This document shows positions 63,265 through 63,775 of a DNA stretch of 64,000 nt, one piece after another. A program made the position numbers and the translations under genes. The notes beneath the pieces were generated by a model. That model saw nothing but the letters and a program-made list of their open reading frames with translations. It was not told where the DNA came from and searched no databases. How positions within the stretch are numbered: the stretch's first letter is position 1; every line of letters starts with the position of its first letter. This DNA is from Eledone cirrhosa (lineage: Eukaryota), in contig OZ024743.1 in assembly GCA_964016885.1 (NCBI GenBank), forward strand, positions 102,362,001 to 102,426,000. Direction: 5' to 3'.

Positions 63265-63775
63265 TAGTATTTCAGTATACATATATGGATGTACATCTTT
63301 AACTTAATTGTTTAAGCGTCAGTCATACAAAAGTGAGTTACAAACGAAACGAAATTTAATTTCGTTTCGTTATTTGTTTTTATCGTCTCCGTTGAACCGG
63401 TACTTACTCACACTCTATGCAAATTGGTCTGCCCACTACTAATTTTCATAGAAAAAGCTTATAACGATATGTGCTTTTACGATTCTCTAGAGAGGCCGGA
63501 AGATAGGTAAATATTGCTGATGAGTTGTAACAACAACGAAACTAGTTCAATATTCCTTGTCTGGCTTTCTGGAGAATAGAGGAAAGGTGTTTCCTCAAAA
63601 ACCAGTATGACTCTAAAAACCGGTTTGTCTGTGTGTTTACATACAGAATAGCTGGCCACTCACAGTAAAGTGACCAGTGAAAAAACTTGGTACATCTACA
63701 TATGTATACGTGTGTGTATTCATATACATACTAGTATTTCAGTATACATATATGGATGTACATCTTTAACTTAAT
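63265..63775 (+). mobile_element. Retrozyme-like family C: 467-nt monomer with ~44-nt terminal redundancy; HHR at 63510-63554
   Basis: tagtatttcagtatacatatatggatgtacatctttaacttaat occurs at both 63265 and 63732; permutation differs from the 41812 copy. Confidence 0.85.

Follow-up and report, generated by a model that had tools for sequence, protein, structure and literature searches.

The last kilobases of the window, which is the whole stretch of 64,000 nucleotides analysed here (Eledone cirrhosa contig OZ024743.1, positions 102,362,001 to 102,426,000), raise the question of what kind of element starts and ends with the same 44 nt, and by what route it entered the genome. On the plus strand, positions 63265-63308 recur at 63732-63775 with 100% identity and a period of 467; unit positions are numbered below from u1 = 63265. 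The insertion, 63265-63775, is a single arm of 1.09 units and has (TA)n-rich DNA as its target on both the left (62532-63266) and the right (63777-63999). The original prediction, a recently active retroelement of the retrozyme kind, had correctly reported the repeated end, the period and two hairpins, all of which are present. It was also right that there is no credible open reading frame: in a natural tandem array the longest ATG ORF of the unit was 19 aa on the plus strand and 30 aa on the minus strand. No LTR architecture was found, PBS and PPT being outside the search, and the GC content is below 50%.

The unit is not a product of chance because its 30-nt core has 5,212 matches in the 3.0 Gb genome and the reversed control has 0. 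A DNA search with the unit gave at least 109 matches at 98-100% identity (39 scored of 357 candidates). Tandem arrays reach 29 hammerheads per arm. The predicted circular fold has a z score of -9.2 for the hammerhead strand and -5.2 for the other strand (60 shuffles). Covariation over the whole unit was not significant and outside the hammerhead it was weak, with 4 compensatory, 12 consistent and 16 breaking changes (p 0.37 versus singletons).

Each monomer had been said to contain exactly one canonical minimal hammerhead. One per unit is indeed found, on the plus strand at 63499-63570, matching Rfam HH9 with 37.7 bits and E 4.8e-08, a score which does not reach the gathering score of 52. The motif is predicted to have a stem I of 7 bp with an extension, a stem II of 4 bp with a 6-nt loop and a short palindromic stem III. 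The core CUGAUGA is at 63517 and, by standard hammerhead numbering, the cut would fall after GUU, between 63547 and 63548 (u283/284). The min-HHR described in PMC4209133 has a long helix II (7-8 bp), a short helix I (4-5 bp) and no need of helix III. Judged from its sequence, the hammerhead of the 467-nt unit is a canonical type I motif and not the min-HHR of Penelope-like elements (PLEs) as defined there, so that this part of the claim did not hold.

Conservation of the motif was examined in 51 insertions chosen regardless of the hammerhead. The stem II pair u261/u272 is U-A in 22, A-U in 28 and broken in 1, and the triplet before the predicted cut is GUU in 27 and GUC in 24. The 11 core columns contain one singleton change and none of the shared variants, versus 68 shared variants in 397 columns, though the core columns are too few to stand alone. 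A pattern excluding the core counted above gave 2,626 matches (reversed control 0), nearly all with a compensated stem II among the 100 matches listed, and a sister family, 61% identical, keeps the hammerhead core with a different stem II. Taken together this argues for a motif that has been maintained. A maintained hammerhead is no argument for RNA circles since autonomous PLEs keep theirs too.

The structure of the insertions bears on how they arise. The copy at 41812-42370 had been described as the same unit opened at a different point, with a period of 469. The period is confirmed (41812-41903 = 42281-42372) but the copy belongs to the minus strand, where it forms one arm of an insertion, 41812-42740, whose two arms lie head to head. 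Its long-end arm (41812-42372, minus strand) covers 1.2 units from u27 to u118, with a hammerhead at 42093-42164, and its short-end arm (42371-42740, plus strand) runs from u148 to u49, with a hammerhead at 42458-42529. A 16-nt target-site duplication, read by eye from the junctions, is located at 41799-41814 and 42733-42748 and overlaps both element ends. Similarly, the diverged fragment reported at 6251-6701 is ~88% identical to the unit (6250-6702) but proves to be an older head-to-head pair without a hammerhead, with a short-end arm at 6250-6471 (minus strand, u294 to u50) and a long-end arm at 6476-6702 (plus strand, u358 to u119). In the insertion at 63265-63775 the 3' end is the short one, at u44. 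The tail segment between the two end sites (u44-50 and u115-119), 63309-63383 on the plus strand with a hairpin at 63345-63369, is internal in this insertion.

The ends were surveyed in 70 insertions selected by unit similarity or hammerhead core, regardless of their ends. The 3' ends cluster at u112-121 (long) and u38-52 (short), ~70 nt apart, and only the 5' ends vary among copies. Head-to-head inverted, 5'-truncated pairs account for 43 of the 70; one long end is combined with one short end in 39 of these, four have one end elsewhere and none has two alike. The remaining 27 have a single orientation, 18 with the long and 9 with the short end; two open arrays are counted among them, as is the 6616 arm, which has a diverged partner that the k-mer method missed. 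Some seemingly single arms carry an inverted short end of 10-16 nt at their 5' side. Outside the survey one short-short pair was encountered (L307). At the two fixed sites, 101 of 111 arm ends lead into a TA repeat, and two pairs outside (TA)n, where duplications could be read, have target duplications of ~11 and 16 nt. Arm lengths within a pair are weakly correlated (rho 0.31, p 0.058, n=39). Exact patterns found 2,042 long-end junctions genome-wide and 737 short-end junctions on the forward strand (the reverse-strand count is inflated by overlaps), the reversed controls giving 0 in both cases; insertions of the unit thus number at least 2,042, mostly in (TA)n. Contigs of run X1 have loose TA ends at u50 and u119, behind 63314 and 63383. 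With both ends also present in X1, an artefact of the present assembly is an improbable explanation of the two-end pattern, although X1 may be the same sample.

Features of PLEs include fixed 3' ends, of which one arm may carry a tail, 5' truncation to variable extents and an inverted arm, and two fixed 3' ends with long/short pairing are the PLE 'tail' signature. In PMC11167929 a PLE was shown to nick both strands and to initiate at two sites inside the RNA, the spacing of which gives the tail. The unit resembles EN+ PLEs (PMC11167929, PMC8557442, PMC3846280) in its 5' truncation, partial tandems and head-to-head inverted arm, in a one-arm tail that equals the distance between two internal reverse transcription (RT) starts, in its AT-rich or (TA)n targets and in having a hammerhead in the repeat. 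It differs from them in having no ORF, a tail of ~70 rather than 30-40 nt and up to 29 units per arm. Given two fixed end points and head-to-head copies as in Penelope-type elements, the unit is likely to be a small parasite borrowing a Penelope enzyme. That it is a retrozyme moved by a PLE enzyme can be held with high confidence. The original prediction had named PLE machinery as the likely mover. This is supported, as is its view of the unit as a hammerhead tandem without coding capacity, recently active and of the non-LTR retrozyme kind.

The arrays of 20-30 units, and the higher-order patterns in some of them, could also be those of a satellite DNA spread at the DNA level, by unequal exchange or extrachromosomal DNA circles, with the hammerhead as a passenger. 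Polar ends at two fixed sites, the rule pairing long with short, target duplications of 11-16 nt where readable, more than 2,000 dispersed sites and strand-skewed fixed variants all speak against such an origin, which is very improbable. The end survey contradicts it as the main route, and it may act secondarily.

If a PLE enzyme moves the unit, the copies might simply be truncated pLTRs, derived from an ORF-bearing PLE that has its coding part beyond the loci examined. The anatomy of the ends is as in PLEs and, in Xenopus, 24 of 57 retrozyme families match known transposable elements, 21 of 22 of those elements being PLEs (10.64898/2026.07.22.740005). However, the unit is followed head to tail by further copies of itself, up to 29 times. 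In 31 ten-kb stretches and the window no RT ORF extends from it, nor is one joined to it beside variant hammerheads, for which 60 loci were read of 202 matches (52 + 150); all that these loci gave was the 467-nt family, its sister and unrelated sequence. RT elements with an ORF were found in three families (L042, L055/L120 and L061), which follow the same two-end rule with tails, counted by eye, of ~41, ~58 and ~134 nt. Pfam RT and GIY-YIG matches occur in L042 alone among the three; L055/L120 and L061 would be PLEs on motifs seen by eye, with 25% or no alignment. None of the three has a 70-nt tail or aligns to the unit, and no pLTR of an autonomous partner sharing sequence with the unit was found among the RT elements of the fetched loci. 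An origin as truncated pLTRs therefore has very little probability. Fixed ends, or constant attachment to an ORF-bearing PLE, had been named beforehand as part of what would count against a circular retrozyme. The ends are fixed in part, at the 3' side, and constant attachment was not seen in the loci examined. An element that is always attached to an ORF is ruled out, and a rare or diverged parent would be compatible with these loci.

One array does meet an RT element head to head. At L051 4139-4201 its 5' end abuts the 5' end of the RT element, the junction consisting of a short motif common to both and 53 nt copied from the RT element. This single junction could be taken as support for a pLTR origin, yet the long type is found at both outer ends, a hint that two separate events took place.

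Other RT elements were noted in passing. L162-L191 belong to a young, abundant RT + GIY-YIG family, whose hammerhead-like core is a variant one and whose tail is ~41 nt; for this family there were at least 94 scored matches at 96-100% and 25,479 first-look candidates. A young RT element, inserted head to head, occupies L061 800-10000 and L120 1-1944 (immediately to the right of the window); it has an open frame of 830 aa without a Pfam match. In its hammerhead ~115 nt replace stem II, stem III is palindromic and the triplet is GUU; its tail is ~134 nt, and a fragment of it is located at 51201-51497 in the window.

The sister family has 25,189 cores (exact pattern; reversed control 0) and is more numerous than the 467-nt family. 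It is represented in the window at 32543-33517 on the minus strand, with a period of 453 and hammerheads at 33228 and 32775. Identity to the unit is ~61% along its length, periods are ~420-500 (the window copy, L034, L041, L058 and L059) and the base of stem II is U-U. Its ends are at homologous sites (12 long, 11 short), with a tail of ~60 nt.

The above results leave the nature of the RNA template to be considered. Varied permutation and greater-than-unit length had been offered as what rolling reverse transcription of an RNA circle would leave. Varied 5' ends and copies longer than one unit are both confirmed, but over 111 arm ends the 3' ends are fixed at two sites. Variation at the 5' end arises from truncated reverse transcription on any template, and permutation is therefore withdrawn as evidence for a circle, a circular template being plausible on other grounds. 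One of these is a template survey, for which the initial 70 long-end matches on contig C1 were taken and one duplicate was dropped to leave 69 arms. The predicted cleavage site is passed in 52 of the 69; 41 arms are longer than one unit and 20 are longer than two. Closed 5' ends within 5 nt of the site number 3 of 66 versus 1.5 expected (p 0.18), so there is no pile-up. A cleaved linear monomer is therefore not the usual template.

The arrays are close to clonal. Among 64 well-covered insertions there are 55 substitution haplotypes; the units within any one insertion hardly differ, and internal divergence falls as insertions become longer (Spearman -0.45, n=41). A non-random set of 26 long arrays contains 298 complete units, of which 227 are identical to the commonest unit of their own array, and there are 19 different commonest units. 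Within one lineage, L308, L309, L310, L311 and L118 each have different variants in all complete units.

Variants fixed within insertions are also skewed by strand. Among rare variants carried by every copy of an insertion (152 insertions), 15 are A>G versus 5 T>C (p 0.025) in a post hoc test, run after the skew was noticed, and pooling them with lineage variants gives 38 versus 18 (p 0.007). Single-unit variants in the same insertions are 41 versus 33 (p 0.35). Without L311 the fixed skew is 10 versus 5 distinct sites; A>G sites are not enriched in paired positions (9/15 versus 93/150) and C>T is also above G>A (9 versus 3). The fixed A>G skew would fit editing of an RNA unit that was then copied repeatedly. 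Two clusters were observed. L311, from 531 onward, has 4 A>G within 70 nt in all 5 copies of both arms, and L104, of a seven-locus lineage, has 3 A>G within 6 nt fixed in all copies of both arms.

Uniform arrays could also be obtained if the same element and the same PLE enzyme used an uncleaved linear multimeric transcript of existing arrays, internally primed and without any circle, with array length regained by template jumps of the RT or by tandem expansion at the DNA level. Internal priming is indeed described in PMC11167929, where unprocessed RNA is used in vitro and the hammerhead is not needed. The periodic variants of some arrays point the same way: minor alleles recur with a period of ~2 in L035 and L114 and ~3 in L118, in L041 one minor allele takes the fourth place, counted from the 3' end, in each of the two arms, and in L301-L302 minor alleles are 8 units apart. 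The alleles of L035, L041, L114 and L118 indicate that multimeric templates or DNA-level expansion also occur. In addition, a GUU triplet and a short stem III suggest slow cleavage. Eight of nine Xenopus dimers were without cleavage in 10.64898/2026.07.22.740005.

Suitable linear mothers may exist. In 8 of 27 insertions of at least three units an allele was fixed in all copies and absent from the other sampled insertions. Such private alleles were dropped as evidence when three alleles or motifs were searched genome-wide and all were found at other loci. Those first scored as private to L104 and L118 recur with 69 matches at 7 loci, 302 matches and 175 matches, and among the loci concerned are arrays of the same lineage that are both long and homogeneous. 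Of 13 loci with u90G (out of the 175 matches), L118 was the only one to combine it with u320G. On the other hand, a linear multimer should pass its minor units to its daughters, and 0 of 63 minor unit types are common to two of the 26 long arrays, a small and non-random sample. The possession by each array of its own fixed variants, in both arms, and the lower divergence within longer insertions also count against it. A linear multimer as template is rather unlikely.

Given a retrozyme moved by a PLE enzyme, a circular template is moderately favoured. The same modest preference applies to the whole proposal, in which a Penelope-like enzyme reverse-transcribes the 467-nt retrozyme into (TA)n and the template is probably an RNA circle of unit length that is read repeatedly. 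Arrays with two or more hammerheads would be transcribed; the hammerheads, probably as dimers via the palindromic stem III, would excise units and a host ligase would close them, steps modelled on PMC7229834 and PMC4209133. A PLE RT/GIY-YIG protein of the type in PMC11167929 would nick both strands of an AT-rich target. The cDNA would start at u115-119 on one strand and at u44-50 on the other, matching the observed ends, and each would run a variable distance past the cleavage site, up to the 29 units observed in arrays. The two cDNA 5' ends would join head to head, as observed in the pairs, and some arrays would later be altered at the DNA level. The most specific version, in which a Penelope enzyme primed twice on one 467-nt circle, rolled up to ~29 times per strand and left A-to-I edits frozen in every unit of both arms, is tentative, with a little under an even chance of being correct.

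Compared with known systems, the unit is likely to be a new family of metazoan non-LTR retrozymes, which are non-autonomous Penelope-like elements. It has every sequence-level feature of these that was tested, namely tandem units, a type I hammerhead, no coding, no LTR and a predicted self-paired unit. Like the retrozymes of PMC7229834 it consists of non-coding tandem units of low GC with one type I hammerhead each and no LTR, has long target duplications where readable and co-occurs with PLEs. The unit is 467 nt whereas theirs are ~170-400 nt, and circles, predicted for the 467-nt family, have been demonstrated for them. The vertebrate non-LTR retrozymes of Li et al. 2026 (10.64898/2026.07.22.740005), with units of 51-972 bp, likewise combine tandem units bearing a type I hammerhead with a PLE link. 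Their link consists of co-occurrence and pLTR similarity, whereas here it consists of insertion ends and no pLTR parent was found among the loci examined. That work favours local amplification for arrays. The main texts of both papers do not mention tails or inverted arms; that of PMC7229834 is also without truncation or microsatellite targets and that of 10.64898/2026.07.22.740005 without junctions, though the supplements may have them. Non-autonomous Chlamys elements such as MRC1 (PMC8557442) are also PLE derivatives with multicopy head-to-tail insertions; their 3' ends are generally similar to those of an autonomous family, and canonical hammerheads are absent from most Chlamys. No description of the 467-nt family or of tails on retrozymes was found in the literature, Repbase and Dfam being outside this search.

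The step from circle to genome is still hypothetical for animal retrozymes, and PMC7229834 proposes, without showing it, that PLE enzymes copy the circles into the genome. If the circular reading is true, the insertions described here are sequence-level evidence for that step. If the template is linear, the unit is an ordinary non-autonomous PLE repeat. In either case the insertion ends tie a retrozyme to PLE chemistry, taken here to be that of PMC11167929. The family is young and abundant, and its exactly mapped priming sites, clonal arrays and more numerous sister with the same ends make it a defined substrate for a test of circle versus linear template and for finding the PLE enzyme responsible.

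Several minor observations concern the distribution of the unit and of similar repeats. The unit (window 63273-63739) was found at low depth in runs X4-X6, labelled organisms B, C and D. X4 gave a 497-nt wrap-around contig of the unit, which a tandem DNA array would give equally well; the assembled contigs (Logan) of the four runs, which are of unspecified kind, cannot show ends, strand or circularity. L192 and L193, separated by 17.7 kb, are identical insertions and probably result from a local duplication. Matches to Rfam miRNAs in the window were rejected as microsatellite noise. Other repeats with hammerhead-like cores are located at 30265-31169, 33981-34243, 24463-25340, 29116-29515, 8121-8344, 25423-26008, 61937-62377 and 45719-46123, many of them inverted pairs next to (TA)n, and the cores at 61996 and 29324 resemble cores beside RT ORFs in L132 and L055/L120.
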